Positions 28,762 to 55,681 of a DNA stretch of 64,000 nucleotides are shown here, piece after piece (positions within the stretch are counted from its first letter, which is position 1; every line of letters starts with the position of its first letter). The stretch is from the NCBI GenBank assembly GCA_964407105.1, contig CAYOUG010000001.1, positions 8,059 through 72,058 of the forward strand, in the 5' to 3' direction. Both the position numbers and the translations under genes were made by a program. This DNA is from an uncultured Candidatus Saccharibacteria bacterium. GTDB taxonomy: Bacteria; Patescibacteriota; Minisyncoccia; Phycocordibacterales; CALRHW01. Under the pieces are notes generated by a model. That model made no database searches and was not told where the DNA came from. It worked only from the letters and a program-made list of their open reading frames with translations.

Positions 28762-29385
28762 CTAACTTTCGAAGCGAGCTGCGAGGCTGCGGCCGTCCCA
28801 GACGCTGTCGAGCCTGTCCCAAGGCACCACCACCTGGTCGCCGTAGCCGTAAAAATACGGGACGCAGCGACGGCCGTAGCGATCGCGTACGACGCTCTTC
28901 CAGCAGAAGACGACCTTTTTCCCGAACCGTTTCCGGAAGGTCTTGATGTCCACCAGCTTGGCGATGGCAAGTGCGTCGTGGAGACCAAGACATGTCTTGA
29001 GCGTGCCATTCTGACCAAGATGGTCGTAGATGACGTCGCCAGTCGTAGTGCAGCCATCCTTCTGGTCGTTGTGGAGCCAGAGCTTAACCCGTGTAAGGTC
29101 GTACTCGGTTGGACCGACAGACTCCAATTCTGGATGGAGTACCTCCGTTACCCAGTTTGGGTAAACGGGACGAATGGAACGGTCGACGCGGATGAAGGTG
29201 TTAGACGGTTCTTGTTCAGACGATCCGCTAACGATACCCTGAAAGATGTTTACGATCTTCTCAGGGTCACGCTTGCCGTCCAAGACAAGCTTGTTGACTG
29301 TCGTCTGAAGCTTCCAAAGCCGTGAAATCACAGCCGCTTCAGCGATTTGATCCATATCTTCTTTCGTCATACCATTACTCATGGC
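28762..29385 (-). CDS. hypothetical protein in a ~65% GC island (likely horizontally acquired)
   Basis: Start taken at MSNGMTKEDMDQ, with aggggaaacgcc immediately upstream. No recognisable family. Confidence 0.5.
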   Translation of the reverse strand, partial: AMSNGMTKEDMDQIAEAAVISRLWKLQTTVNKLVLDGKRDPEKIVNIFQGIVSGSSEQEPSNTFIRVDRSIRPVYPNWVTEVLHPELESVGPTEYDLTRVKLWLHNDQKDGCTTTGDVIYDHLGQNGTLKTCLGLHDALAIAKLVDIKTFRKRFGKKVVFCWKSVVRDRYGRRCVPYFYGYGDQVVVPWDRLDSVWDGRSLAARFES

Positions 29386-29570
29386 GTTTCCCCTAAAAAG
29401 AGTTTGCCCGCTACTTACAGGCATCTGAAGGGACGTATGGTTCCACAATAGAGCCACTATGTCCGAACAATTCCATTAATTATTATAAACTTTTTTTAAA
29501 AAATGTCAATATATCTGAGTAACCATTCTTCTATTCCTCCCACATTCACTTTTTATGCTACAATTTTCTC

Positions 29571-33651: not shown

Positions 33652-33767
33652 GCATATATTGTACCACGCGACACGACACAGAAAAAATACTTGACACAAT
33701 AATAAATTATCAATACAGTGTTTTAAGTCTCTTGTTCCCCAACACTCTCAACGAAAGGAGTATTTCA

Positions 33768-34118
33768 ATGGGAAAAATTATCGGATTGAGCTTCTCTCGT
33801 TGTGTGGCTGCCATTGCACGAGATGAAGAATCACCTGAAGATGTAGTGAAAATCTACACAAGCACTCGTATTTCCACAAACGAAGCGTGGAAAGCGGCAC
33901 TTCTGTGGCATCAACAACACCGCTGGCAAAACGACAACCCGCATCTTTGCATGCAAATTGCCGTCAAGCTCATCAAAGCTAAGAAGATTATCCAGCCATG
34001 GATCACAAAGGGTGTGGTGCCCGAAGTGATCAGCAACGACAAAATCTGGATCCTAGAATCAGAGGAAGGAAAAATCGTCTGGATCCAAGCGCCACAGGTT
34101 GTCCAAAAGCAAAGCTAA
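33768..34118 (+). CDS. hypothetical protein (GC-rich, ~50% GC, isolated plus-strand gene)
   Basis: Start at MGKIIGLSF with SD aaaggag. No family recognised. Followed by a hairpin and T-run at about 34150-34195. Confidence 0.4.
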   Translation: MGKIIGLSFSRCVAAIARDEESPEDVVKIYTSTRISTNEAWKAALLWHQQHRWQNDNPHLCMQIAVKLIKAKKIIQPWITKGVVPEVISNDKIWILESEEGKIVWIQAPQVVQKQS

Positions 34119-35364: not shown

Positions 35365-36309
35365 CTATTGTGTTGCTACGATTTTTTCCTTTCTTTTGAA
35401 GATGGTTTCAATGTGAGGCTTGCCTTCAGAATCAAATCTGGGAACTTTCACGTCCCAAACAAGTCTGAGTTGTGCGAGAGTCCAGATGAGATACCACGTG
35501 GGGTCGATTTCCCACCACGAAATTCCGTGACGCGCAGAGTTTTGGATCGCGTGATGATTGTTGTGATTACCCTCACCAAAACCAATGATGGCAAGAATGG
35601 GGTTGTTTACACTATGATCATCAGTATCAAATCTCCTTATGCCCCAAATGTGACAAATTGAGTTGATACTCCACGTAATGTGATAGACGATGAAAAGCCG
35701 AATCATTCCTCCCCACAAAAATCCAAACAACGCCCCCTTCCAAGACCAAGAGATGAGTCCGCCGATCAAGCCCGGCAACAAAAGACCCAGCACAAACCAC
35801 AGAACAAAATACTTATTTACAAAAACAAGCGCTGGGTCACGAGACAGGTGTTTTGTGTACTGATCTTCTTTTGAATGACGGGGTTGCGAAAACCATCCCA
35901 TATGGGCGTGGTAAAAACCAAGCCAAAAACCATTCCATCCATCACCGTGTAGATGTGGTGAATGCGGATCTCCGATCTGGTCTGAGTACTGGTGGTGAAC
36001 ACTATGATCTGCGACCCATCGAAAAAATGAATTTTGTCCAGACATTGATCCACAAATCGCAAGTGTTATCTGAGTCCATCTGTAAGTCTTGTAAGAAGCG
36101 TGTGTAAACAATCGGTGAAAACCGGCAGTCACACCAAAACCACTCACAAAGACAAACACGATGAACAAGGAAAGAGATGTCGCGTCAATTCCCCGATTCC
36201 ACCAGTAAAAAACACCCCAGATGGCCACCAGAAATGGTGCCCAAACAAAAAAGTGAGTTAGGGCTTTTTCTGCCTTTCCAGGCCCAGCATGAAGTCCAGA
36301 TCTACTCAT
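35365..36309 (-). CDS. membrane fatty-acid (acyl-CoA/acyl-lipid delta-9-type) desaturase
   Basis: Histidine boxes HRLFTH, HSVHHQY and HNNHH, plus TM helices. Start at MSRSGL with SD ggagg 6 nt upstream. Confidence 0.8.
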   Translation of the reverse strand: MSRSGLHAGPGKAEKALTHFFVWAPFLVAIWGVFYWWNRGIDATSLSLFIVFVFVSGFGVTAGFHRLFTHASYKTYRWTQITLAICGSMSGQNSFFRWVADHSVHHQYSDQIGDPHSPHLHGDGWNGFWLGFYHAHMGWFSQPRHSKEDQYTKHLSRDPALVFVNKYFVLWFVLGLLLPGLIGGLISWSWKGALFGFLWGGMIRLFIVYHITWSINSICHIWGIRRFDTDDHSVNNPILAIIGFGEGNHNNHHAIQNSARHGISWWEIDPTWYLIWTLAQLRLVWDVKVPRFDSEGKPHIETIFKRKEKIVATQ

Positions 36310-36366
36310 GATTGACCTCCAAAAGGTAGAGTAGTAAGAAAAAAACAACAAGGAACGCCAAATTTA

Positions 36367-44232: not shown

Positions 44233-46164
44233 ATGAAAGATGCATTTGAAGCGCAAACATCAAACAGCGCTATAGAAAAAGGTCCGATACAAACAGTCGG
44301 GCCAACAAAAGAAAATTCACCACAAAACCCAGCTGGTGAAGCACAAAGAAACAACAGCCGAGGAACTCGCCGACCAAACTCTTCTGGTATGGGACGTGGT
44401 GGTGGACATCGACGTATGGGCGGTATGCGACGCGACAGCTCCCCTCTTCGTGTAGCAAAAAAACAAGAAGACACCATTCCACCAATCGGTGAGAGTGTGC
44501 GTATTATTCCACTTGGAGGAGTAGAAGAAGTTGGAAAAAACATGACAGCAATTGAATACAAGGACGATATTATCGTTCTTGATATGGGTTTTGGTTTCAG
44601 TGAAGAAAACACACCGGGTGTAGACTACATTTTGCCAAATTCAAAATACTTAGAAGACAATAAACACAAAATTAAAGCCGTGGTTATCACTCACGGACAT
44701 CTCGACCATATCGGTGGAATTCCATACATCATGCCTAGAATAGGTAATCCGCCAATGTACACCCGAGAACTGACATCGATTATGATCAGAAAGCGACAAG
44801 AAGAATTTGCTCATCTGCCACCGCTAGATATTCGTGTTGTGGAAAAAGACGATCATATTCGCATCGGTAATTTACCTGTACGCTTTTTTGCAGTTACTCA
44901 CACCATTCCAGATTCAATGGGAGTAATCATTGAAACTCCTTACGGCTCTATCGTAAACGCAGGTGATCCAAAACTCGACCATGACGACGGCGTTCCTACA
45001 GACGCTGAACAAAACGAGTACAAAAAATTTGAAAAAGAAAAGGTACTTCTTTTTATGAACGATTCAACAAACGTTGAAAACCCAGGCTGGTCTACTCCCG
45101 AAAAACTCGTACATAAAAACCTTGAAGAAATCATAAAAAATATAAAAGGGAGAATAATTATTGGTACTTTTGCTTCCCAACTTGAACGTATCATTAAAAT
45201 TATCGAGATTGCAGAAATGTATGGCAAAAAAGTGGCGGTAGAAGGCCGAAGCATGAAAACCAACATTGAAGTAGCAAGACTTGCTAAAATGCTCAATGTT
45301 AAAAAAGAAACCATGATCCCTATTGAGGACGTGGAAAAATATCCGCCAGACAAAATCGTAATACTTGCCACTGGTGCTCAAGGTGAAGAGTTTGCCGCAC
45401 TTATGCGTATGGCAAACAAAACTCACAAAAATTTCCGCATCAACAAACGTGATACGGTTTTGCTTTCATCTTCAATCATTCCAGGTAACGAACGCACAGT
45501 ACAAAAACTAAAAGATAATATTGCTAGACAAGGTGCAAAAATAATTCACTATCGTACATCAGATGTGTATATTCATTCCACCGGTCACGGCAACAGAGCA
45601 GAATTAGAGTGGATGTTCAAAAAAATCAATCCAAAATTTTTCATGCCAATTCACGGCAATCACTACATGCTTCGTCTACATGCACAAACTATCGAAGCTC
45701 TTGGAATGCCAGAAGATCACATCATCATTCCTGACAACGGTTCTATTATCGAAATTCAAGAAGAAGGAACAAAACTTGTTCGTCTAAAAGAATCAGCTCC
45801 AAGCGGAATGATGATGGTGGATGGATTTTCTATCGGTGATATGCAAGAAGTGGTAATACGCGACCGAAAAATGCTTGCCGAAGATGGAATGTTTGTCATT
45901 ATCGCAAGTGTTAATTTAAAAACTGGAAAACTCAGAAAATCTCCCGATATTATTTCTCGAGGATTTGTGTATTTACGTGAATCTCAAGATCTTCTTCAAG
46001 ACGCACGACATATTATTAAAAAAAGTGTCGAGGACACAACGGTTGGAATGAACCCTATCAACTTTGATTACGTAAAAGCAAACATTACCGACGTGGTGAC
46101 TCGTTTTCTCTTTCAGAAAACCGCAAAAAAGCCTATTGTTATTCCTGTAGTGCTTGGAATGTAA
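44233..46164 (+). CDS. rnj: ribonuclease J (beta-CASP metallo-beta-lactamase) with Arg/Gly-rich N-terminal extension
   Basis: 643 aa; HGHLDHIGG motif and beta-CASP region; N-terminal ~85-aa RG-rich segment. Confidence 0.9.
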   Translation: MKDAFEAQTSNSAIEKGPIQTVGPTKENSPQNPAGEAQRNNSRGTRRPNSSGMGRGGGHRRMGGMRRDSSPLRVAKKQEDTIPPIGESVRIIPLGGVEEVGKNMTAIEYKDDIIVLDMGFGFSEENTPGVDYILPNSKYLEDNKHKIKAVVITHGHLDHIGGIPYIMPRIGNPPMYTRELTSIMIRKRQEEFAHLPPLDIRVVEKDDHIRIGNLPVRFFAVTHTIPDSMGVIIETPYGSIVNAGDPKLDHDDGVPTDAEQNEYKKFEKEKVLLFMNDSTNVENPGWSTPEKLVHKNLEEIIKNIKGRIIIGTFASQLERIIKIIEIAEMYGKKVAVEGRSMKTNIEVARLAKMLNVKKETMIPIEDVEKYPPDKIVILATGAQGEEFAALMRMANKTHKNFRINKRDTVLLSSSIIPGNERTVQKLKDNIARQGAKIIHYRTSDVYIHSTGHGNRAELEWMFKKINPKFFMPIHGNHYMLRLHAQTIEALGMPEDHIIIPDNGSIIEIQEEGTKLVRLKESAPSGMMMVDGFSIGDMQEVVIRDRKMLAEDGMFVIIASVNLKTGKLRKSPDIISRGFVYLRESQDLLQDARHIIKKSVEDTTVGMNPINFDYVKANITDVVTRFLFQKTAKKPIVIPVVLGM

Positions 46165-46193
46165 AGGAATACTCAAAAATAGATTACAAAAAA

Positions 46194-46230
46194 GCCCCCG
46201 CGACCGAAGTCGGGGGGGCGTTTGTTCTAC
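46194..46230. terminator. bidirectional Rho-independent terminator (gcccccgcgaccgaagtcgggggggc)
   Basis: GC hairpin with T-run on the plus side (end of rnj) and on the minus side (end of the GC-rich gene pair). Confidence 0.6.
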
Positions 46231-46275
46231 ACGACGCAACCGTCGTCTAGAACTCTCTGTTTTGTTGACTAGTCG

Positions 46276-46869
46276 TCAGTCCTCAGCCTGCGGCTTGGGC
46301 TTAGGCTTCGGTGCTGGCGTCGGTGGTGGTCCAGGTGGTGGACCGCCGCCAACCCAGAAACAAGTGCTGGCTGTGAGAGCGTCGCACTTTGTGCCATTGG
46401 TGCACATTGTCGTTGTGCAACCGAACGTGACACCGTCATGGCAATCACATGGTTGCATGAGCACAACGACCGTGCCTCCGGGTGCAGGCATCGAGACTCC
46501 ACCGATTGCTCCGGCGACAATCACGTTGTCGCCAAGGTCGATGTTGTACTCAAACACCTGCACGCCGTTTGGCAAGATTCCGAGTGTGCCAAACACCGAG
46601 ACAACCATTCCGCTGGAAGTGGGAACAGCTGTGTAGGAAAACTTGTTTCCTACAACGGTTTGTGTGACGACGAATTCTTGTTCGCCGACAACAACCGTGA
46701 TGTTTCCGCTCACATGAGCGACGGAAACATCCTCGAACGGCAATTCAAAGGAAGCCGTTTTTCCCGTCATCGCCTTGGCGATATCAAAGCCGTTTCCAGC
46801 AAACGCTGGAACGGTGGGGATCGCCATTGCAACAAGCAAGGCGACAAGGCTCATCATTTTCCTGATCAT
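46276..46869 (-). CDS. hypothetical secreted protein, Cys-rich, with C-terminal Pro/Lys-rich tail (GC-rich island)
   Basis: 197 aa; signal peptide MIRKMMSLVALLVAMAIPTVPAFA; C-terminus ...GGGPPPGPPPTPAPKPKPKPQAED. About 55% GC versus a ~37% background. Confidence 0.5.
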   Translation of the reverse strand: MIRKMMSLVALLVAMAIPTVPAFAGNGFDIAKAMTGKTASFELPFEDVSVAHVSGNITVVVGEQEFVVTQTVVGNKFSYTAVPTSSGMVVSVFGTLGILPNGVQVFEYNIDLGDNVIVAGAIGGVSMPAPGGTVVVLMQPCDCHDGVTFGCTTTMCTNGTKCDALTASTCFWVGGGPPPGPPPTPAPKPKPKPQAED

Positions 46870-46937
46870 TACTCACTCCTTTGTTTGGAGTTTTCCCGAC
46901 CGAAAAAAAACGCAATCCCCTCTCTAAATCAGTAGTT

Positions 46938-47954
46938 TCAATCTGTTTTTCGCGCGGTCACCTCCATGGTTTGTGTTGGAACGAGATGAGAGTATTTGTA
47001 GCTGTACCTGTCGAACAGGTAATTTTGCCACGGCGTATACGGTGGCTCTGGCCATCGTACGTCGTTTGTGCGTTCAATTTCCCACCGAAGAATCAAAAAC
47101 GTTTTTGTGTCGATGTACATGTGGTCGTTTCTGACCGTCCATGACCGACGCGCACTGCCTCTCATCTTGCCCTCAGATCCTTCGTCCTGAGTAGCAACGT
47201 GGTAAACCTCCTTTCCGTCAAGCGTTTCTAGAGTAACAACTGATGTTCGACCAATTGTATCCATGAAAGCTTTGGCCTGAGAACTCCTATCGAGCCATGT
47301 GTTATGGAACTGTCCAATAGCACACACCGCCGCAGGAATTTCATCCGTAAGACAAGGCTGTGTTTTTAGATTCACATCACCAAACCCATGTGGATCTGGA
47401 GCTGGATATGAATCTGAGAAGTAGCCAACTTGCCCTGGTGTGTCATACCAGTTTGTTTCAGTGCACTCCCCGTCCTTGAGACTGAGGATGAGCTGTGGTT
47501 TATCAGCAGAAGTCTTCCGCATTTTGGTGCTGAAAGATTTTCTACCCATATCCGCACTTATTGAAACATGAGATGTGATAACACCAGGAAGGGTTGCTAC
47601 CGCGACACGAGGATTGAGCATCTCTCGCACCTGTCCCTCAGCAAGCTGGGGGGTTTGTACATAAGAGATCTCTAGCGTGGCTTCAAAAGCCAGTGAATCG
47701 AGAGAAGCATAGGCTTCCCCGACCTTTTTTGCAATTTCCTCCACGGTTGGAAGCGGAATTGAAATTGGCTTTGCCGACGTTTCGGGGGTTCCGATCGAAG
47801 CTTTCGCTTCGCTCGGAACTGTTTCTTCAGTCGCCACAACCAATGCCATACTGGCGGTAGTTGCGACAAGCATCAGAAGCGCGGTCCAAACAAGCGTTAG
47901 ACTTTTCACGGAATCCACCTTTCTTGAAAATTTAGAGTAGGAAAAAAACGGCAC
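46938..47954 (-). CDS. hypothetical secreted protein (possible LolA/RseB-like fold), GC-rich island
   Basis: 338 aa; N-terminal TM/signal; no confident family. Lies upstream of, and on the same strand as, the 197-aa secreted protein. Confidence 0.45.
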   Translation of the reverse strand: MPFFSYSKFSRKVDSVKSLTLVWTALLMLVATTASMALVVATEETVPSEAKASIGTPETSAKPISIPLPTVEEIAKKVGEAYASLDSLAFEATLEISYVQTPQLAEGQVREMLNPRVAVATLPGVITSHVSISADMGRKSFSTKMRKTSADKPQLILSLKDGECTETNWYDTPGQVGYFSDSYPAPDPHGFGDVNLKTQPCLTDEIPAAVCAIGQFHNTWLDRSSQAKAFMDTIGRTSVVTLETLDGKEVYHVATQDEGSEGKMRGSARRSWTVRNDHMYIDTKTFLILRWEIERTNDVRWPEPPYTPWQNYLFDRYSYKYSHLVPTQTMEVTARKTD

Positions 47955-48077
47955 CTCTATCTAGAACTGTCAACATGACAGAGAGCTATCTGCTTCAATC
48001 GTATAACTTTCTTTTATGTGTGTCAATGGCCATTACAATCCACATATATTTACAGCCATTTTTGCTATACTTACCTC

Positions 48078-49274
48078 ATGGTAAATTCTCTTTCAAAACC
48101 AGAAATTCATCAAAAAGCGCTGTCTATAATATATCTATCCAACCTTCTTCTTTCTTTTCATTACTTCCTAATCCTCTATATACATTCTTCATTTTTAAGT
48201 ATCTATGTAAACGCTTCACAGCTCGCTCTACTTTTTGTGGCTGGATCTATTTTAAATCTTTTTATTTTTTTAAATATTCCACACATTCTTGAACGTATCG
48301 GAAATTATAAATTTACTTTGTGGGCAATTATTTTTGAGGGTCTAGCAATAACGGGTATGGCTTTGGGTACATCTGCATGGACGATTAGTATGGCATTTAT
48401 TCTTCATCAAGCTGTTATTTCAATGATACTTTTTGGACTCGATATTTTTCTTGAAGGTACTGTAAAAAATGAAGCACACACCGGCACAATTCGTGGCATC
48501 TATCTCACACTTTCAAATCTCACTTTGGTGTTTTCACCTCTTATTGCGGGCATTTTAATTGCAAATAGTAATTTCAAAAAGGTTTATTTTATTTCTCTTA
48601 TTTTGCTTGTGCCACTGTTTCTACTTGTACAGAGAAATTTGAAACACGCGGCTTATAAATATAAAGATGGTGTACGCATCACAACAACTTATCTTATTGC
48701 TAGAAAAAATAAAGATGTTCGGGGTGTGTTGTATGCACACTTTATGCTTCAATTTTTCTACGCGTGGATGGTTATTTATGTGCCAATTTTCCTTCACCAA
48801 CATATTGGATTTGATTGGAAAGAAATCGGAGTAATTTTTACTGTTATGCTTTTACCATTTCTTCTTTTTGAACTTCCAATAGGACGTCTGGCTGACAAAA
48901 AATTCGGCGAAAAAGAAATCATGCTTGTTGGCTTTGTGATTATGGCTGTTTCAACATTTTATATTCCATTAATTTCAAGTACTCATATATTGGTATGGGC
49001 TGTTGTATTATTTCTTACTCGAGTTGGCGCAAGTTTTGTAGAAATCACTTCAGAAAGTTATTTTTTTAAACATGTAAATGAAAAAAATCCCGGATTGATT
49101 AGTTTGTTTCGAATGGCACGACCACTTGCATACATTACCGCCCCCGCCGTTGTAACTGGATCTATTGCTGTTTTTGGTTTAGAAAATGATTTGTATGCTT
49201 ATATTTTTCCTATTCTTTCTGTGTTTATGTTTTTAGGAATGAGATATGCTCTCTCTATCACTGACACCAAATAA
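48078..49274 (+). CDS. MFS transporter
   Basis: About 12 TM helices. Start taken at MVNSLSKPEI; an upstream in-frame start at 48018 is possible. Confidence 0.7.
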   Translation: MVNSLSKPEIHQKALSIIYLSNLLLSFHYFLILYIHSSFLSIYVNASQLALLFVAGSILNLFIFLNIPHILERIGNYKFTLWAIIFEGLAITGMALGTSAWTISMAFILHQAVISMILFGLDIFLEGTVKNEAHTGTIRGIYLTLSNLTLVFSPLIAGILIANSNFKKVYFISLILLVPLFLLVQRNLKHAAYKYKDGVRITTTYLIARKNKDVRGVLYAHFMLQFFYAWMVIYVPIFLHQHIGFDWKEIGVIFTVMLLPFLLFELPIGRLADKKFGEKEIMLVGFVIMAVSTFYIPLISSTHILVWAVVLFLTRVGASFVEITSESYFFKHVNEKNPGLISLFRMARPLAYITAPAVVTGSIAVFGLENDLYAYIFPILSVFMFLGMRYALSITDTK

Positions 49275-49406
49275 CACACTTTGAAATATTGTGCAATATG
49301 TTGATAACTCTTTACAAAAAGATAAATTAAGGAGTAATATTGTAGATGGATCGAGTGCGCCTCTCCCGCTAACCCAAAAATAGGCCACTCCTTCTGCATC
49401 TCTTCT

Positions 49407-49445
49407 CCACCCAGGGCGACATACAGCCCTGGGTATATTTTTGTT
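49407..49445 (+). terminator. Rho-independent terminator after the MFS gene
   Basis: cccagggcgacatacagccctggg followed by tatattttt. Confidence 0.55.
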
Positions 49446-49451
49446 TAAATT

Positions 49452-50210
49452 TTAATTTTTTCTAATCTCTGTGTATAAAAATAGAGGAATCTCTTTTCGC
49501 ATTCTGTCTTCTTCTTTTTGTCTTACGCCCGATGCACTTTTTTTGTGAGAAATCCACTCTTCAAGACGTGTTAGAACAAAACCAGCAGATGTAAAAGCTT
49601 TTACATAAAATTGTAAAGGACGATGAAAAGAAATTGTTTCGATTTTTTCTTTTTTTCCTGGATGCATGTCAATAAACACTCGAGACTGAGATAAATAACT
49701 ATCAATACGACGATACTGTACAGAAGATGCATCATCCCAACCCCAAGCAGATGCTTTTGGAATTCTAAATGCTGGATGGTTCATCACAATGTGCACTGTG
49801 CCACCAGAAACGAGCACACGATTACATTCCATAAGCACTGCTTTTATTTCATCAATGTTTTGAATTGCAAGAACAAAAGAGATTTTATTAATTGATGCAC
49901 TTGCAATAGAACTTAAATCATTTGCTGAAGATATTATATACCGCACATGTGGTGGAGAATTTTTTTGAGCAATTTCAATAAGTTCTGAAGACACATCAAC
50001 ACCAATCACATGCTCTGTATTTTTTGCATATTCACGAGTAAAAAAACCCGTGCCACAAGCAAGATCAAGAACCTTGTCTTGCGCAGTGATTGCCATGAGT
50101 CTAATCATGTTTGGTAACAACACTTTTTGATGATAAGAATCATCGTCTCTCGAAAGATGTTCATCATACCAAGAGGCCACCCCTCCCCACGACGTGTCTT
50201 GTTTTTTCAT
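49452..50210 (-). CDS. class I SAM-dependent methyltransferase
   Basis: 252 aa; motif I VLDLACGTG. Confidence 0.8.
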   Translation of the reverse strand: MKKQDTSWGGVASWYDEHLSRDDDSYHQKVLLPNMIRLMAITAQDKVLDLACGTGFFTREYAKNTEHVIGVDVSSELIEIAQKNSPPHVRYIISSANDLSSIASASINKISFVLAIQNIDEIKAVLMECNRVLVSGGTVHIVMNHPAFRIPKASAWGWDDASSVQYRRIDSYLSQSRVFIDMHPGKKEKIETISFHRPLQFYVKAFTSAGFVLTRLEEWISHKKSASGVRQKEEDRMRKEIPLFLYTEIRKN

Positions 50211-50242
50211 AACGGCTAGTATATCACGAACACAATTTGTTG

Positions 50243-51037
50243 TTACTTTTTAGAATTTTGAATGCAAAGAGAAAGTGCTTCTGTTTGTGTCCATCCGCAT
50301 TCGCCATTATTTTGGAGCTTACATTCTGCTGCCGAATAACACGCATATTCGTTTTTAAATTCACAAGTACTTACTAAATCTTGATCAGCACAAAGCTGAC
50401 CACTACAACCAGTGGGACGACATTCTTTAGTTCCAGATGAGGCCCCATCAGAAACAAGTGCTGGATCAAAAATAATAGGAATTTCTATTTGGGCTGAATT
50501 TTCAATAAGACCAGACGGATTGTCTTTTTGAAGAACAAGGGTACCTTTTTTTGTGTTTACCTTACCAAACATCATTGATCCTGAAAACGGCACAAAATCT
50601 GTCGTCATCCATTCACCTTGCGCGGTAATTGGAATCACCGCTATTTCTTTACCATTTGCGTCAAGTAATTTAGCAGGAAAGGATCCTTCAAAAAACCACT
50701 GCCCACGTGCTTCACCAGAAATAGAAAATGGACTTGAAATAATTGCGTTTAATGTGGGTGACACAACACGAATCATGTCCTCAATACCAATCTTGGGTTT
50801 ATTTATATTTTTATCAATCTCGACTTCAGTACTAGATTTTTTTTCTTCTACAAATGTTTTACCGTCTGGGGTTTTACATTGACGTGGATCAGACTCCATC
50901 ACAGGAAATCCATTATCTACACAAGTAGCAAAGTCTCTAATTAAAACAATATCGCCACGTTCACGCATATAAAAAACAGCAACAAAAACAAGTACCAAAA
51001 ATACTATAAAAAAAAGAATAAAGATGGTTTTTTTCAC
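50243..51037 (-). CDS. hypothetical secreted protein (Gmad2-like Ig domain plus C-terminal Cys-rich domain)
   Basis: 264 aa; signal/TM segment; ...GQWFFEGSFPAKLLDANGKEIAVIPITAQGEW...; 8-Cys C-terminal module. Confidence 0.45.
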   Translation of the reverse strand: MKKTIFILFFIVFLVLVFVAVFYMRERGDIVLIRDFATCVDNGFPVMESDPRQCKTPDGKTFVEEKKSSTEVEIDKNINKPKIGIEDMIRVVSPTLNAIISSPFSISGEARGQWFFEGSFPAKLLDANGKEIAVIPITAQGEWMTTDFVPFSGSMMFGKVNTKKGTLVLQKDNPSGLIENSAQIEIPIIFDPALVSDGASSGTKECRPTGCSGQLCADQDLVSTCEFKNEYACYSAAECKLQNNGECGWTQTEALSLCIQNSKK

Positions 51038-51070
51038 ATCTTTATTATACTACACCGAAAAATGAAAAAA

Positions 51071-51463
51071 TTATGAACTAAAATCAACCTCAAATGGATA
51101 CATACCCATTCCACAAGTACCTTGAAGAGTAGAGACTGGTTGCACGCCAACATCTATATCTGTAGCACCAGACTGTGGCAGATTTTTGCTTATATTCATA
51201 TTAGCAATTCTCACAGACGCAGAACAATCAAATGTGCCGTTTGTAAAAAATCTTAATATTGTTGGAATTCCCGCTTTTGCGATACTTCTTTCTGGGAGAT
51301 ATCCACCTCTAGCCCTGATTTCAATAATTTGTTTTCCATCTACAATACTTACATTGTTTTCTGTGGTTTGTGCACCAACACCATTATTTTTTTTAGAAAC
51401 AATAATTGCTCCTCCAATAATAAGTGCGGCAATTAAAATTGATAATACTACTGTTGTTTTCAT
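51071..51463 (-). CDS. small secreted protein, possible metal-binding (CxMxM-type), in the copper operon
   Basis: 130 aa; signal peptide; C-terminal TCGMGMYPF. Sits in the operon with the HMA permease and copA. Confidence 0.4.
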   Translation of the reverse strand: MKTTVVLSILIAALIIGGAIIVSKKNNGVGAQTTENNVSIVDGKQIIEIRARGGYLPERSIAKAGIPTILRFFTNGTFDCSASVRIANMNISKNLPQSGATDIDVGVQPVSTLQGTCGMGMYPFEVDFSS

Positions 51464-51477
51464 GTGGACTTATTATA

Positions 51478-52509
51478 TTAAAAATTAAAGATTGATGGAA
51501 TGACCCCCAATACAACCAGGCTATTTATAAGATTGAAAATCGCAAACATAATTACAACAAGTCCCGCTGATTTAAAGAATATTCCAGACTTTGCACTGTT
51601 TTTTATACTAAACGAACTAAAACTTACTAGAGCAAGAACCGGAAAAGTGCCTAAAGCAAAAGCAAGCATTGTGAGTCCACCATTCCAAAAATTTCCAGTT
51701 GTAAGTGTGTAAAGTTGCATCGACTGAGTAAATCCGCATGGCAAAAAGAATGTGGCGATACCGACCAAAATGGGTGTGAGAGTATGATTAAATTTTGAAA
51801 TACCGTGAGCATGTTTTGCAATAAATTTCGGCATTGACGGTTGAAGTTTTTTGGCCCAAGGAAAAACATCAAGAAGATTAATACCGAGTATGAGCATCAC
51901 GAGACCGATAATTAAACTTAAAATAAATGTCGAGGAAGAGTTGAGAGTAAATGCCGAACCTATCGCACCGATTATTCCACCAAGAATAAAAAAGGATACA
52001 ATACGCCCAACATGAAACATAATTTGCGGTTTAATTTTATCTCCTTCTTTTGCAAAGGTGGCCGACATTGAAAGTACCAAACCGCCAACCACAGCCATGC
52101 AAGTAGAAAGAGAAGCAATAATACCAACCACAAAAGCGGTACCGTAAGTAACATTGCTGGTATTAATAAAATTAATTATTCCAATTTTTTGAAGTATCAC
52201 GAAAAATATACCGAAAAGTAAAGCGACGGGAATAGCAATTTTAAAATCTCCCCAATTTGCTATGTGCTGTTGCTTTTCAACAGAAACCGTATAGCCGTTT
52301 GGTTTTAATAAATCTGTAAACTCTTGTGCAATTTCCTCTGGAGTTTTATTTCCAAAATCTCCCCACACCTCAAGGGAGTGGTTTTTTAAACTTGAAACAA
52401 CCCGACTGATTTGGGGTAAATCTTTTAATGCACTTTCCATCACAAGCACACACGCGTTGCAATGCATACCGTGCACATGAAATTTATAATTTTGCGTTTG
52501 GTTAGACAT
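51478..52509 (-). CDS. heavy-metal-associated (HMA) domain fused to a multi-TM permease (DsbD/CcdA- or TauE-like)
   Basis: N-terminal HGMHCNAC metal-binding motif; about 8 TM helices. Confidence 0.55.
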   Translation of the reverse strand: MSNQTQNYKFHVHGMHCNACVLVMESALKDLPQISRVVSSLKNHSLEVWGDFGNKTPEEIAQEFTDLLKPNGYTVSVEKQQHIANWGDFKIAIPVALLFGIFFVILQKIGIINFINTSNVTYGTAFVVGIIASLSTCMAVVGGLVLSMSATFAKEGDKIKPQIMFHVGRIVSFFILGGIIGAIGSAFTLNSSSTFILSLIIGLVMLILGINLLDVFPWAKKLQPSMPKFIAKHAHGISKFNHTLTPILVGIATFFLPCGFTQSMQLYTLTTGNFWNGGLTMLAFALGTFPVLALVSFSSFSIKNSAKSGIFFKSAGLVVIMFAIFNLINSLVVLGVIPSIFNF

Positions 52510-52512
52510 AAA

Positions 52513-54735
52513 TTATTTTAATTTTTTTGTTTTTAATCGAAGTGAATTTGTAACTACTGATACACTGCTTCCCGCCATAGCAAGTCCCGCAAAAATCGGA
52601 TTGAGCACTATGCCCCATATTGGATAAAGTACACCAGCCGCAACAGGAATACCTATAACGTTATAAATAAATGCCCAAAAAAGATTTTGCTTTACTGTTC
52701 TCATCGTTGCTCGCGAGAGATCAAACGCTTGAGAAAGTTTGTTGATATCTCCATGAAGCAAAGTAATGCCGGCTGACTCAATTGCTATATCAGTACCCGT
52801 AGCCATTGCTATTCCAACATCAGCCTGCACCAAAGCTGGCGCATCATTTATTCCGTCTCCCGCCATCGCTACTTTTTTCCCTTCATCTTGAAGTTGTTTA
52901 ATTTTATTAGCTTTTTCAGCAGGCATTACTTCAGAAATAACGTTGTCGATGTTTGCTTGTTTTGCTATGTACTGCGCCGCTAAATGATTGTCACCAGTAA
53001 GCATTACAACCTTAATACCTCTTTTATGAAGTTTGGCAATCGCCTCTTTTGCTTCATTTTTTAAAGTATCAGAAAGTGCAACAAGTCCTATTTTTTTATC
53101 ATCAACCTCTACCACCACAACCGTTTTTCCTTGTTCTTGTAAGGCCGTCAATTTAATTTCTTTTTTGTCATTTTCATTTGGCTTATGCACGTAAACCAAC
53201 GCACCATCAACATTTGCTTTCACCCCCACGCCCTCAAGTGAAGAAAAATTTTCTGCTTTACTAAGAGAAAGTTTTTGTTCATCGGCTTTTAAAACAATAG
53301 CCTGAGCAAGTGGGTGTTCAGAAAGTTTTTCTACACTTGCAGTAAGTTGTAAAATTTGATTTTCATTCCATTTAGAATCAAGAACCACAATGTCTGTAAC
53401 TTCTGGTTTTCCTTTTGTTATAGTTCCTGTTTTATCAAGCACAATCGTATCCACCTTACTTAATTTTTCTAACGCTTCAGCGTTTTTAATAAGGATGCCA
53501 TACTCAGCGCCCTTACCAACGCCCACAATAATAGCTGTTGGTGTGGCAAGACCAAGCGCACACGGACAAGCAATCACCAAAATTCCTACGCACGACAAAA
53601 TACCATAAGATAGCGCCATAGAAAATCCTATCGTAGGAATTCCCACCGCAATCCACAAAACAAACGTAACCAGAGCAATTATTAAAACAACAGGTACAAA
53701 AATACTAGAAATTTTATCGGCGAGAGCCTGAATAGGCGCTTTTGAACCCTGAGCTTCTTCTACCATACGAATAATTTGTGAAAGCAGTGTGTCCTTACCT
53801 ATCTTTGTGGCGCCAAAAGTAAAGTGACCTTGTTTATTTATTGTGGCACCCACCACAAAATCTCCAATTTTTTTATCGACAGGAATCGGCTCTCCACTAA
53901 TCATAGATTCATCAACAGAAGAATGTCCTTCAATAATTTTGCCATCAACAGGAATTTTTGCCCCCGGTTTTACAATTACAGCATCTCCTTCATGAACATC
54001 GTTTATAGAAATCTCAACTTCTTTTCCATCACGAAAAACAAGCGCCGTCTTTGCTTGCAATCCCAATAATTTTTCAATAGCTTCGCCGGTGCGAAGTTTG
54101 GACCGTGCTTCAAGATATTTTCCAAGGGTTACAAAACCTATCACAACTATTGTTACATCAAAATATGTGTATTCTGGTAAACCAAGTGATTCTCTTATTT
54201 GGGGTAAAAGGACGACCGCAACGCTATATACGTACGCGGTGAGAGTACCTATGCCGATAAGTGTGTCCATGTTTGCAACACGATATAAAACAAATCTTTT
54301 AACCCCCCGCAAAAATGGCTGTCCTATCCAAAAAAGTACTATTGTGGCCAATATCATTCCAACTATATTAAAAAGCATCATTGATATTGGAAGGCTTGGA
54401 ATAAATGAAAATGTTTTTGCTGCTATATCCCAAAGCATTAAAACAAACACAACAAGAGCAATGGGAAAAACAAATTGCATCTTTACTTTCATTTTGGAAA
54501 GTTCTTTGTTTTTGTCCTCTTTTGGTTGATCAACAAATTTGTATCCAAGCTTTTCAATTTCTTTATTCATTTTTTCAACAGAAATTTTTTGTGGATCAAA
54601 ATTAATGCTCGCTTTTTCTGTAGCAAAATTAACATCTATTTTTTTCACCCCATCTAATCCTAAAACTGTTTGAGAAATTATGGCCGAACAACTTGCGCAA
54701 TGCATTCCCTCAATTTTTAAAGTCTGATTATTCAT
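52513..54735 (-). CDS. copA: copper-translocating P1B-type ATPase
   Basis: 740 aa; N-terminal HMA (GMHCASC); CPC in TM6; DKTGT; GDGINDAP. Confidence 0.9.
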
Positions 54736-54756
54736 ATAAAAAATGTATATGTCGAT

Positions 54757-55008
54757 TTATTTCCTCTTAAGTTTATAGACCTTAAGAATCTCTTCTTTTG
54801 CTTTCTCGGTTTGTCCTTTGGTAACCTGATTTAAAACACAACTACCCAAATGGTTTTCAAGAAGCAGATCTTCTACATTTGAAAGAGCTTGTTTTACAGC
54901 AGACGTTTGAGTAATAACATCAATACAATAAGTATTATTTTCAATCATTTTTTGAAGACCGCGCACCTGACCCTCAACAAGTTTTAATCGACGAATAATT
55001 TTTTTCAT
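54757..55008 (-). CDS. csoR: CsoR/RcnR-family metal-sensing transcriptional repressor
   Basis: 83 aa; RLKLVEGQVRGLQKMIENNTYCIDVITQTSAV...H...C. This is the W-X-Y-Z fingerprint of DUF156. Confidence 0.85.
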   Translation of the reverse strand: MKKIIRRLKLVEGQVRGLQKMIENNTYCIDVITQTSAVKQALSNVEDLLLENHLGSCVLNQVTKGQTEKAKEEILKVYKLKRK

Positions 55009-55020
55009 ACCAATATTCTA

Positions 55021-55043
55021 TACCCCCCAAGGGGTATGTGTCA
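55021..55043. promoter_or_regulatory. CsoR-type operator palindrome (ATACCCC-N-GGGGTAT) overlapping the csoR promoter
   Basis: ctataccccccaaggggtatgtg lies 13 nt upstream of the csoR start. A minus-strand TTGCAA-16-TAAATT promoter sits just upstream. Confidence 0.6.
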
Positions 55044-55064
55044 ATTTAGTATCATAAGAGAAAG

Positions 55065-55242
55065 TTGCAAAATTGGTGCTGCCGATCAGGGACTCTCGGC
55101 TACCGCCGCGGGTGCTTTTCGGTCTCGCATGCGAGTACGCACACTCGACAACGAAAAGCCTTTCGAGTCCCTGACGAAAGTGCCGCGGGGCACTTTCTAT
55201 CGCCAGCACTCCGCTTCGCTACGTGCTGCCGATCAGGGACTC
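55065..55242. repeat. 20-bp direct repeats (gtgctgccgatcagggactc) duplicating the 3' end of tRNA-Gln, flanking ~140 bp of hairpin-rich DNA (att-like scar)
   Basis: Identical 20-mers at 55065-55084 and 55223-55242. The second is the 3' end of the tRNA gene. The interval has inverted repeats (cagggactc/gagtccctg; gaaagtgcc/ggcactttc). Confidence 0.6.
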
Positions 55243-55296
55243 GAACCCCAATTAACCGCTCCAGAGGCGGTCGTCCTACCATTAGACGAATCGGCA
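55226..55296 (-). tRNA. tRNA-Gln (anticodon CTG), U1-A72
   Basis: Reverse complement TGCCGATTCGTCTAATGGTAGGACGACCGCCTCTGGAGCGGTTAATTGGGGTTCGAGTCCCTGATCGGCAG. Anticodon loop CTCTGGA; a T-stem with two G-U pairs lowers confidence. Confidence 0.65.
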
Positions 55297-55344
55297 ATAA
55301 ACCTTACGATACTTTAAAAATAGCCTTTTTTCAAGCAAACAAAA

Positions 55345-55372
55345 ACCGGCCTCGGGGGTCGGTTTTTTGCGA
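55345..55372. terminator. bidirectional hairpin terminator (aaaaccggcctcgggggtcggtttttt)
   Basis: Palindromic GC stem flanked by an A-run and a T-run. Lies downstream of the 70-aa gene on the minus strand. Confidence 0.55.
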
Positions 55373-55397
55373 CAAAAATTGTGTCGCGTTTGTTTCG

Positions 55398-55610
55398 TTA
55401 TCGGATGGTTGCACCACGCTCGTTCAGAACGAGCCGTCCGAAGTCATCAACGTAAGAACGTTTTTCTGGGTCATACCTCAATCCACGCGCCTCAGCCGCT
55501 TCAACGTTGCGAGGATGCTCTGGTCTCAAACTCGCACAAAAAACTGGTTGGGGTTTTGTTGCAGGTTTCTGTGTTGCTGACTTCGGATTCGGAGTCTTCT
55601 TCGTCGTCAT
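55398..55610 (-). CDS. hypothetical small basic protein (70 aa), GC-rich
   Basis: SD aaaggaaa 6 nt upstream of the ATG; followed by the terminator hairpin. About 55% GC. Confidence 0.45.
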   Translation of the reverse strand: MTTKKTPNPKSATQKPATKPQPVFCASLRPEHPRNVEAAEARGLRYDPEKRSYVDDFGRLVLNERGATIR

Positions 55611-55681
55611 ACAGTTTCCTTTCTTTTGTACACACCCAAAAAAACTGTATCAGATTAAATAATAATTGTCTACACAAAAAA

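Follow-up and report, generated by a model that had tools for sequence, protein, structure and literature searches.

The LolA-like fold holds acyl chains and other hydrophobic ligands in the proteins where it is known elsewhere, and one of these, RseB, acts by binding both a partner protein and lipid. O-antigen and capsule loci, like the pherotype or bacteriocin loci of streptococci, are familiar examples of hypervariable replacement loci. Here we describe a two-gene cassette that recalls both, located in a 64,000-nucleotide stretch (the window; contig CAYOUG010000001.1 of assembly GCA_964407105.1, positions 8,059 to 72,058) from an uncultured bacterium of the Candidate Phyla Radiation (CPR, or Patescibacteria) and inserted between rnj, which encodes RNase J, and a gene for a transporter of the major facilitator superfamily (MFS). 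We propose that the region represents one version of an envelope module that is hypervariable and exchanged horizontally, with two exported products that act together and a diversification driven at the cell surface, a reading to which we give slightly better than an even chance. The fold class predicted for the first protein is already known, as is the general idea of a replaceable hypervariable locus; what appears to be new, and undescribed in the literature searched, is the combination of a LolA-like protein with a six-cysteine partner, in a fixed slot of CPR genomes and shared across phyla. (The literature searched on LolA-like proteins and on Paceibacteria and Planctomycetota yielded tangential papers only, and that on the sample accessions yielded none.) The features of the locus, in window coordinates, are as follows.

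44233..46164, plus strand: rnj, encoding RNase J, the left flank, convergent with the cassette (Pfam RNase_J_b_CASP, RNase_J_C and Lactamase_B)
46194..46219, no strand assigned: hairpin 1, GC-rich, GCCCCCGCGACC-GAAG-TCGGGGGGGC (match in the minus-strand terminator scan, sequence and folding)
46224..46253, no strand assigned: hairpin 2, GTTCTACACGACG-CAAC-CGTCGTCTAGAAC, directly past the stop region of gene 2
46276..46869, minus strand: gene 2, 197 aa, start codon ATG at 46869 (open reading frame with an AGGAG ribosome-binding site 6 nt upstream)
46938..47909, minus strand: gene 1, 323 aa from GTG 47909 (the longest open reading frame extends to 47954 and gives 338 aa)
47976..47986, minus strand: 5′ motif GCTCTCTGTCA, in consensus form GTTCTCTGTCA, where the composition changes, a short way downstream of the promoter-like site
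47998..48026, minus strand: sigma-70-like promoter directed into the cassette, TTGACA-17-TACGAT (10 of 12 positions matched in a promoter scan)
48078..49274, plus strand: MFS transporter gene, the right flank, divergent from the cassette (Pfam MFS_1)

The original prediction, made from the letters of the window alone, described two co-directional minus-strand genes encoding proteins of 338 and 197 aa between rnj (44233..46164) and the MFS gene (48018/48078..49274), and both open reading frames are present as described (46938..47954 for gene 1 and 46276..46869 for gene 2). The likely true start of gene 1 is the GTG at 47909, favored by a ribosome-binding site, AGGTGG (47915-47920), located 5 nt before it; the Logan call agrees with this length (323 aa) and the NCBI call is 311 aa. 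Alignment with a related locus (L082; loci compared with the window are cited by L numbers and single proteins by P numbers) makes ATG 48078 the probable start of the MFS gene. Hydropathy analysis reveals exactly one hydrophobic segment in each of the two proteins, N-terminal and of the signal type, consistent with the N-terminal signal or transmembrane segments first proposed. The insert is not specific to one assembler, because an independent Logan assembly of run SRR12487045 matches window positions 45939-55253 at 100% identity and spans both junctions.

The composition of the cassette is far from the genome background, as had been claimed, and several measures agree on this. First, the segment 46170-47960 has the highest GC content (0.503) of all 1791-bp stretches in the window, the mean outside it being 0.387 (sd 0.023, maximum 0.459). 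The figure of about 55% originally quoted for the whole island is too high; gene 2 has 0.549 and gene 1 0.484. Second, GC at third codon positions (GC3) is 0.586 in gene 2 and 0.454 in gene 1, compared with 0.30 ± 0.09 in other open reading frames. Third, of the 55 window genes tabulated, gene 1 and gene 2 have the two lowest fractions of Phe, Tyr, Met, Ile, Asn and Lys (FYMINK), and the fraction of Gly, Ala, Arg and Pro (GARP) is highest in gene 2.

The decisive step was a look-up of the coding context of gene 1 relatives. In L082 the relative of gene 1 (P0005) adjoins an MFS gene whose product is 79% identical to that of the window, and is followed by a gene whose product is 35% identical to gene 2 (E 1e-29). 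A gene 2 homologue lies directly downstream of the gene 1 homologue in the window, L082/83, L085, L088, L090-93, L094, L095/96 and L099/100; the two genes overlap by 4 nt in L085, as read from coordinates, and share the same ATGA overlap in L088, as read from the open reading frame sequences. The same slot between rnj and the MFS gene holds the pair in at least four other Paceibacteria contigs, and the identities of three of them to the window are as follows.

L099/100: rnj 90.7%, gene 1 27%, gene 2 29%
L082: MFS transporter 79%, methyltransferase 67%, gene 1 29%, gene 2 35%
L095/96: MFS transporter 62%, gene 1 30% (local), gene 2 22%

The pair is also present in L097/98, on short contigs. The flanks are thus 62-91% identical whereas the cassette versions are only 22-35% identical, and in every CPR copy the GC content of the cassette exceeds that of its flanks by 0.10-0.20, with GC3 of 0.45-0.73 compared with about 0.30 in the host. 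A metagenome scan with a sub-alignment recovered only 4 loci, and the pair is in none of the 80 related loci fetched through RNase J (Parcubacteria/Paceibacterota, some labelled Zambryskibacteria). The gene order oppA-rnj-MFS is kept in about 65 of these; rnj is a conserved anchor of the slot, and it effectively abuts the MFS gene in 42 of the 65 loci that have both genes, the other 23 containing inserts of 350-5000 bp. The foreign composition and the absence from 80 relatives fit an acquired island, but not a solitary island of orphans: the cassette recurs in the same slot, in divergent versions, in at least four closer relatives.

The rnj-MFS junction is itself a general insertion hot spot, with unrelated cargo in the 23 related genomes noted above (including L003, L006, L013, L015, L016, L026, L033, L034, L048, L052, L059, L060 and L076). 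The cargo includes membrane proteins, a DDE transposase or insertion sequence (L013), a RelE/RelB-like toxin-antitoxin pair (L015), a small endonuclease-like open reading frame (L076) and GC-rich open reading frames with membrane segments (L026, L033 and L034). In L003 (9877-10623, minus strand) and L006 (9872-10594, minus strand), both close relatives of the window with rnj 82-84% identical, the slot contains a single GC-rich open reading frame (GC 0.60 and 0.64, against 0.40 and 0.49) encoding a protein that has a signal peptide, is Cys-rich in its C-terminal part and ends in a Ser/Pro/Gln tail, and the two proteins are 45% identical to each other. Homology of these to gene 2 is not demonstrable (hhalign probability 14%, then 5%).

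The pair is taken to be a rare two-gene operon, predicted to be co-transcribed and equipped with its own putative promoter, 5′ motif and convergent terminator. The TTGACA box of the promoter-like site recurs at the equivalent position in L082, L096 and L100, and L097 has TTGACC. The 11-nt motif GTTCTCTGTCA, which in the window has one mismatch and belongs to a small palindrome (CTGTCA-TGT-TGACAG), is located 40-60 nt upstream of gene 1 in the window, L082/83, L097/98 and L100, and it is kept although the coding sequences of L082/83, L097/98 and L100 are only about 27% identical; it marks a conserved edge of the slot. At the other end, hairpin 1 lies between an A-run and a T-run, giving U6 after the hairpin on the minus strand, and is likely the terminator of gene 2 and plausibly also that of rnj. 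Folding z-scores of the double hairpin are -6.0 for the minus and -4.7 for the plus strand, and the bidirectional terminator shared with rnj that had been proposed is structurally plausible.

Short repeats are also present at the two edges. Hairpin 2 overlaps TCTAGAAC, a short repeat that recurs at the two boundaries of the insert, and comparison of positions 46246-46269 and 47960-47985 reveals a direct repeat of 12 nt (TCTAGAACTCTC / TCTAGAACTGTC) and an inverted repeat of 17 nt that is 88% complementary. These edge repeats are 12-17 nt long overall, and part of each corresponds to the terminator hairpin or the conserved 5′ motif; since these explain part of each repeat, they are not called as attachment (att) or recombination sites. 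In the same way, CAGAGTTCC and CAGAGTCCC bracket the cassette in L082/83.

Both genes belong to tiny unnamed families, comprising about 19 clusters for gene 1 and about 6-8 for gene 2 among billions of proteins. A word-indexed search of 5.8 billion proteins matched each protein only to itself, and neither protein, nor any of the family profiles (A1 for gene 1; A3 and A7 for gene 2), has a match in Pfam, NCBIfam, PHROGs, PADLOC or the sequences of the PDB. Their apparent orphan status was overturned by exhaustive HMMER searches and gene-context look-ups. For gene 1, an exhaustive phmmer search of 1.84 billion cluster representatives identified 18 distant relatives at 25-36% identity (E down to 4e-17), giving the 19-member alignment A1, in which two motifs are conserved in the joint pattern TE[RS]xWY…VCATAEFxxWLG and five residues (E166, Y178, G190, C211 and W220) are invariant. 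Neither protein is an ordinary conserved protein of the lineage and neither has a normal GC3, and the reading of the pair as horizontally acquired survives on both counts.

At its N-terminus gene 1 has either a signal peptide or an anchor. About 7 copies, on contigs that are higher in GC or unplaced, contain a lipobox Cys; the five CPR copies all lack it and have a plain signal peptide instead. An AlphaFold2 model built from A1 (19 homologues; pLDDT, the predicted local distance difference test score, 81; predicted template modelling score, pTM, 0.74) contains an N-terminal hydrophobic helix, a disordered linker, a helix at residues 71-83, about 12 long antiparallel strands and short helices at 214-235. 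Foldseek comparison of this model with the PDB matched DUF1329 (4z48, E 7e-6), RseB (2v42 and 2p4b) and LolA (8cgm and 6f3z), the last two at probability 0.99-1.0 and TM-scores of 0.3-0.4, and the lipid-binding sheets of ApoB-100, vitellogenin and MTP (E 1.6e-5 to 7.6e-4). By sequence, the gene 1 profile has only chance-level matches in the PDB. The LolA/RseB-like fold suggested at the outset for this protein is thus supported as a fold class and not as a sequence family, the predicted open beta-sheet being of the LolA/RseB/DUF1329 class.

The gene 2 product begins with a signal peptide (…PAFA|GN), continues as a beta-rich body and has a module of six cysteines at its C-terminal end (C141, C143, C151, C156, C162 and C170). 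A profile search of the set of 5.8 billion proteins recovered only six clusters. In the eight-member alignment A7 just eight positions are invariant, two Gly and the six Cys, the latter in the pattern CxC-x7-C-x4-C-x5-C-x~9-C and followed by a Trp (CxW). With nothing else invariant, the protein is more likely a binding or structural protein than an enzyme, as the alignment suggests. The Cys cluster and the GGGPPPGPPPTPAPKPKPKPQAED tail originally described are both present, and an AlphaFold2 model, of low confidence, is all-beta. The reading of the tail as a wall-spanning linker is unsupported: it is the last 24 residues of the protein, ending in ...PKPKPKPQAED with no anchor or LPXTG following it, and this Pro/Lys-rich PKPKPK tail is unique to the window, being different or missing in the seven aligned homologues. 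Anchoring by sortase was rejected, as the Pro-rich segment has no LPXTG, transmembrane segment or wall-binding domain after it. In lake metagenomes the gene 2 homologue is present in two forms of 173 aa and 143 aa (L091:7128-8432; P0023 versus P0025/P0026), the shorter lacking 30 residues that were lost in frame between two 'IQF' repeats. Since at least 20 contigs carry the short form, the N-terminal beta region seems to be dispensable in part.

Outside the CPR, the pair is found in genomes of a quite different kind. In L085 (GCA_037141355.1, GC 0.63) it adjoins PSCyt1/PSCyt2/PSD1 and DUF1501 genes, which we take to be hallmarks of the Planctomycetota and the wider PVC (Planctomycetota-Verrucomicrobiota-Chlamydiota) group, and the contigs of further carriers of the pair or of gene 1 have GC contents of 0.59-0.73 (L084 and L086-L089) and 0.64 (L094). 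The neighbors of the pair are rnj and the MFS gene in CPR genomes and unrelated genes elsewhere. In L091, a 394-kb lake-metagenome scaffold, the housekeeping genes have GC contents of 0.55-0.59 and the pair 0.44, so that the pair is compositionally foreign there too, in the opposite direction, being AT-richer than its host. In a neighbor-joining tree (a distance method; 19 sequences, 271 columns, 200 bootstraps), the CPR copies are monophyletic in 0 of 200 bootstraps, and the L082 version joins the planctomycete-type L085 and P0016 with 93% support; in this tree, therefore, the CPR versions interleave with planctomycete-type sequences. No relatives of the pair were found among viral contigs, phage records or plasmid records. 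The horizontal acquisition suggested at the start is supported by the following: atypical composition, absence from the 80 related loci, planctomycete-type relatives and CPR copies that are not monophyletic.

How such a module would work can be sketched as follows. The two proteins would form an extracytoplasmic complex, with a hydrophobic ligand (a lipid or an acyl chain, for instance) bound by the LolA-like subunit and with the gene 2 product, which ends in a putative knob of three disulfides formed by its six cysteines, as a non-enzymatic binding partner. The module would operate at the cell surface in contacts with other cells, and these contacts would drive its diversification. Versions would be replaced or exchanged horizontally at the slot within a subclade of Paceibacteria, and also across phyla with planctomycete-type bacteria. 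Such replacement would account both for a cassette that remains GC-rich although its genome is low in GC and for versions that diverge far more than their flanks.

Several observations weigh against this proposal. The ligand, complex and localization of the pair are predicted rather than demonstrated. The Foldseek TM-scores of the gene 1 model are modest (0.2-0.4), and none of the Pfam or NCBIfam models of the LolA clan (LolA, LolB, MucB_RseB, DUF1329 and others) matches any of the 19 family members at E ≤ 1. The AlphaFold2 model of gene 2, made from the single sequence, has a pLDDT of 49 and is unusable for a fold search. The cassette has neither an integrase or transposase nor a convincing att site, only short boundary repeats. 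One gene 1 homologue (L084) is unpartnered, the single such case where the downstream region is readable. The short contigs are assigned to the CPR solely through their flanking genes. Finally, the tree is star-like beyond a few nodes, and the version in the window is on a long branch that groups at 55% with one from a contig of GC 0.73.

Of the competing explanations, the one rated highest is a conflict module, in which gene 2 would code for a secreted toxin or bacteriocin-like effector rich in disulfides and gene 1 for its extracytoplasmic immunity or carrier protein, the hypervariability resulting from arms-race selection and horizontal spread. The tight linkage of the pair, which is sometimes translationally coupled, its patchy and very rare distribution across phyla, its atypical composition in every host and its extreme divergence beside conserved flanks are all as this would predict, and gene 1 is a lipoprotein in several copies on higher-GC contigs, like many periplasmic immunity proteins. 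Nonetheless, we consider it unlikely. The invariant residues of gene 2 are Cys and Gly only, none of a catalytic type; neither protein matches a toxin, immunity or defense model in Pfam, NCBIfam, PHROGs or PADLOC; there are no secretion-system genes nearby in any context, and in double-membraned hosts a Sec signal alone delivers a protein only to the producer's own periplasm; and the larger, LolA-like gene comes first.

Alternatively, the cassette could have entered the ancestor of a Paceibacteria subclade once and then been inherited vertically, evolving very fast while local GC-biased gene conversion or selection maintained its high GC content. The slot, orientation, promoter and 5′ motif are indeed alike in the window, L082, L097 and L100, the closest relative of the window's gene 2 is the CPR copy in L082 (35%), the best phmmer match of gene 1 is also the L082 copy, and long branches can mimic non-monophyly in distance trees. 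The grouping of the L082 version with planctomycete sequences at 93% bootstrap makes this distinctly unlikely, however, as does the very large difference in rate that would be required in L099, where rnj is 91% identical and the cassette 27%. GC3 has not moved from 0.45-0.73 toward the host value of about 0.30, and in L091 the deviation of the copy from its host runs the other way. Relatives close by rnj also lack the pair, L002 (about 89%) having no insert and L003 and L006 an unrelated gene.

A third explanation takes gene 1 to be an envelope sensor of the RseB/MucB type that binds the gene 2 product or a lipid in an extracytoplasmic stress switch. RseB is among the best structural matches of the model (2v42 and 2p4b, above), but we regard this as very improbable, given that no sigma-E or anti-sigma genes lie near any copy, that gene 2 has a cleavable-looking signal peptide with no membrane anchor or cytoplasmic domain, and that there is no match to Pfam MucB_RseB. 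That the GC-rich segment is an assembly or binning chimera, or contamination from a higher-GC genome, is scarcely credible: the compositional jump is sharp at both edges and relatives do occur in high-GC genomes, but the independent assembly matches both junctions at 100% over 9.3 kb, four other samples have the pair between Paceibacteria rnj and MFS genes, and the promoter, ribosome-binding sites and terminator fit the locus.

The exchanged envelope module that we prefer has a more specific form, in which the cassette is a host-interaction determinant moving between Paceibacteria and planctomycete-type bacteria by virtue of a physical association, of symbiont with host or of predator with prey. 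Most members of the CPR have unknown hosts and lack lipid synthesis. The LolA-like subunit would capture host lipid for a cell unable to make its own, the six-Cys subunit would dock on the surface of the partner, and the slot between rnj and the MFS gene would be a landing pad at which versions are swapped as hosts change. We think this a long shot, although if it were true the phylogeny of the cassette would provide a sequence-based handle on the unknown hosts of Paceibacteria. How CPR bacteria engage other cells at their surface is, to our knowledge, largely unknown, and the pair defines a candidate module for study: two exported proteins, the first with a predicted fold of the lipid-carrier type, in a fixed slot, in highly divergent versions and shared with planctomycete-type bacteria. 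With it come two unnamed protein families that curated libraries do not cover, and the case illustrates how word-indexed searches can make orphans of proteins whose family comes to light through exhaustive profile searches and gene context.

Several other features of the window were noted. A GC-rich open reading frame of 231 aa (28762-29457, minus strand; GC 0.54, GC3 0.65, third-lowest FYMINK fraction, no Pfam match) is wedged between a fructose-bisphosphate-aldolase-like gene and a sugar kinase gene, and may be a second foreign insert. A putative 128-aa open reading frame (33732-34118, plus strand; GC3 0.52, no Pfam or Rfam match) occupies a gap between minus-strand genes. A fatty-acid desaturase homologue (35365-36351, minus strand; Pfam FA_desaturase, E 3e-17) has a GC3 raised to 0.44, and is notable because CPR genomes are expected to rely on scavenged lipids. 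The N-terminus of RNase J (44233-44480) is an Arg/Gly-rich extension of about 80 residues (…RRPNSSGMGRGGGHRRMGGMRRDSS…), elevated in GC, and appears to vary within the lineage, because relatives align only from residue ~30-80 onward. A GC-rich patch (55018-55650; 0.47 per kb) surrounds tRNA-Gln (55225-55296) and includes a 70-aa open reading frame (55398-55610, minus strand); nothing besides the tRNA was found there in Rfam at E ≤ 0.1, and the Logan contig ends inside tRNA-Gln. A copper-handling-like cluster (50243-55008) contains the following genes.

51071-51463: cupredoxin-like protein
51478-52509: HMA-DsbD_2 protein
52513-54735: Cu-type P-type ATPase with an HMA domain
54757-55008: CsoR-type repressor

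Next to these are genes for a Gmad2-domain protein and a methyltransferase that are syntenic with the MFS gene in relatives.

Among described systems, genomic islands and integrative elements resemble the cassette in anomalous composition, absence from the site in relatives, a repeatedly used insertion site and tree incongruence; the cassette differs in having no integrase, tRNA target or long direct repeats, and in its size of only 1.8 kb. A diversity-generating retroelement was rejected, there being no reverse transcriptase near the cassette and no long internal repeats, as was an integron cassette with attC, since there is no integron integrase and the boundary sequence, by eye, does not fit GTTRRRY. 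Toxin-immunity and bacteriocin systems are recognized by toxin domains, catalytic residues or association with secretion systems, and the pair has none of these. With hypervariable replacement loci the cassette shares a fixed slot, conserved flanks, highly divergent versions and atypical composition; it comprises only two genes, of another kind and not biosynthetic, its exchange appears to cross phyla and its replacement is a proposal. The sheets of ApoB-100, vitellogenin/lipovitellin and MTP, open, amphipathic and lipid-cradling, are among the top structural matches of gene 1, but these proteins are eukaryotic and many times larger, and the sheet segment alone aligns (TM about 0.1 relative to the target), so that the likeness of the model to them is one of architecture and not of family membership.

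A further close comparison is with the LolA-like superfamily (LolA, LolB, the N-domain of RseB/MucB, DUF1329 and carriers of the LppX/LprG type). Gene 1 differs from it in having no sequence match to the clan models, low TM-scores and an invariant Glu and Cys with no assigned role. It also differs from the Lol and Rse systems in its surroundings, as LolCDE, LolB and rpoE-rseA/sigma-E are not among the neighbors of the cassette, and the sole constant neighbor of gene 1 is a secreted six-Cys partner that has no counterpart in those systems. Nonetheless, gene 1 is exported, as members of the superfamily are, and several copies are lipoproteins; an extracytoplasmic location is predicted from its hydrophobic N-terminus and from the lipobox in about 7 non-CPR homologues. 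The modelled structure, with an N-terminal helix, a long curved antiparallel sheet of about 12 strands and short helices inserted midway, corresponds to the open antiparallel barrel or half-barrel, with about 11 strands and a helical lid or plug, by which the LolA fold is recognized.

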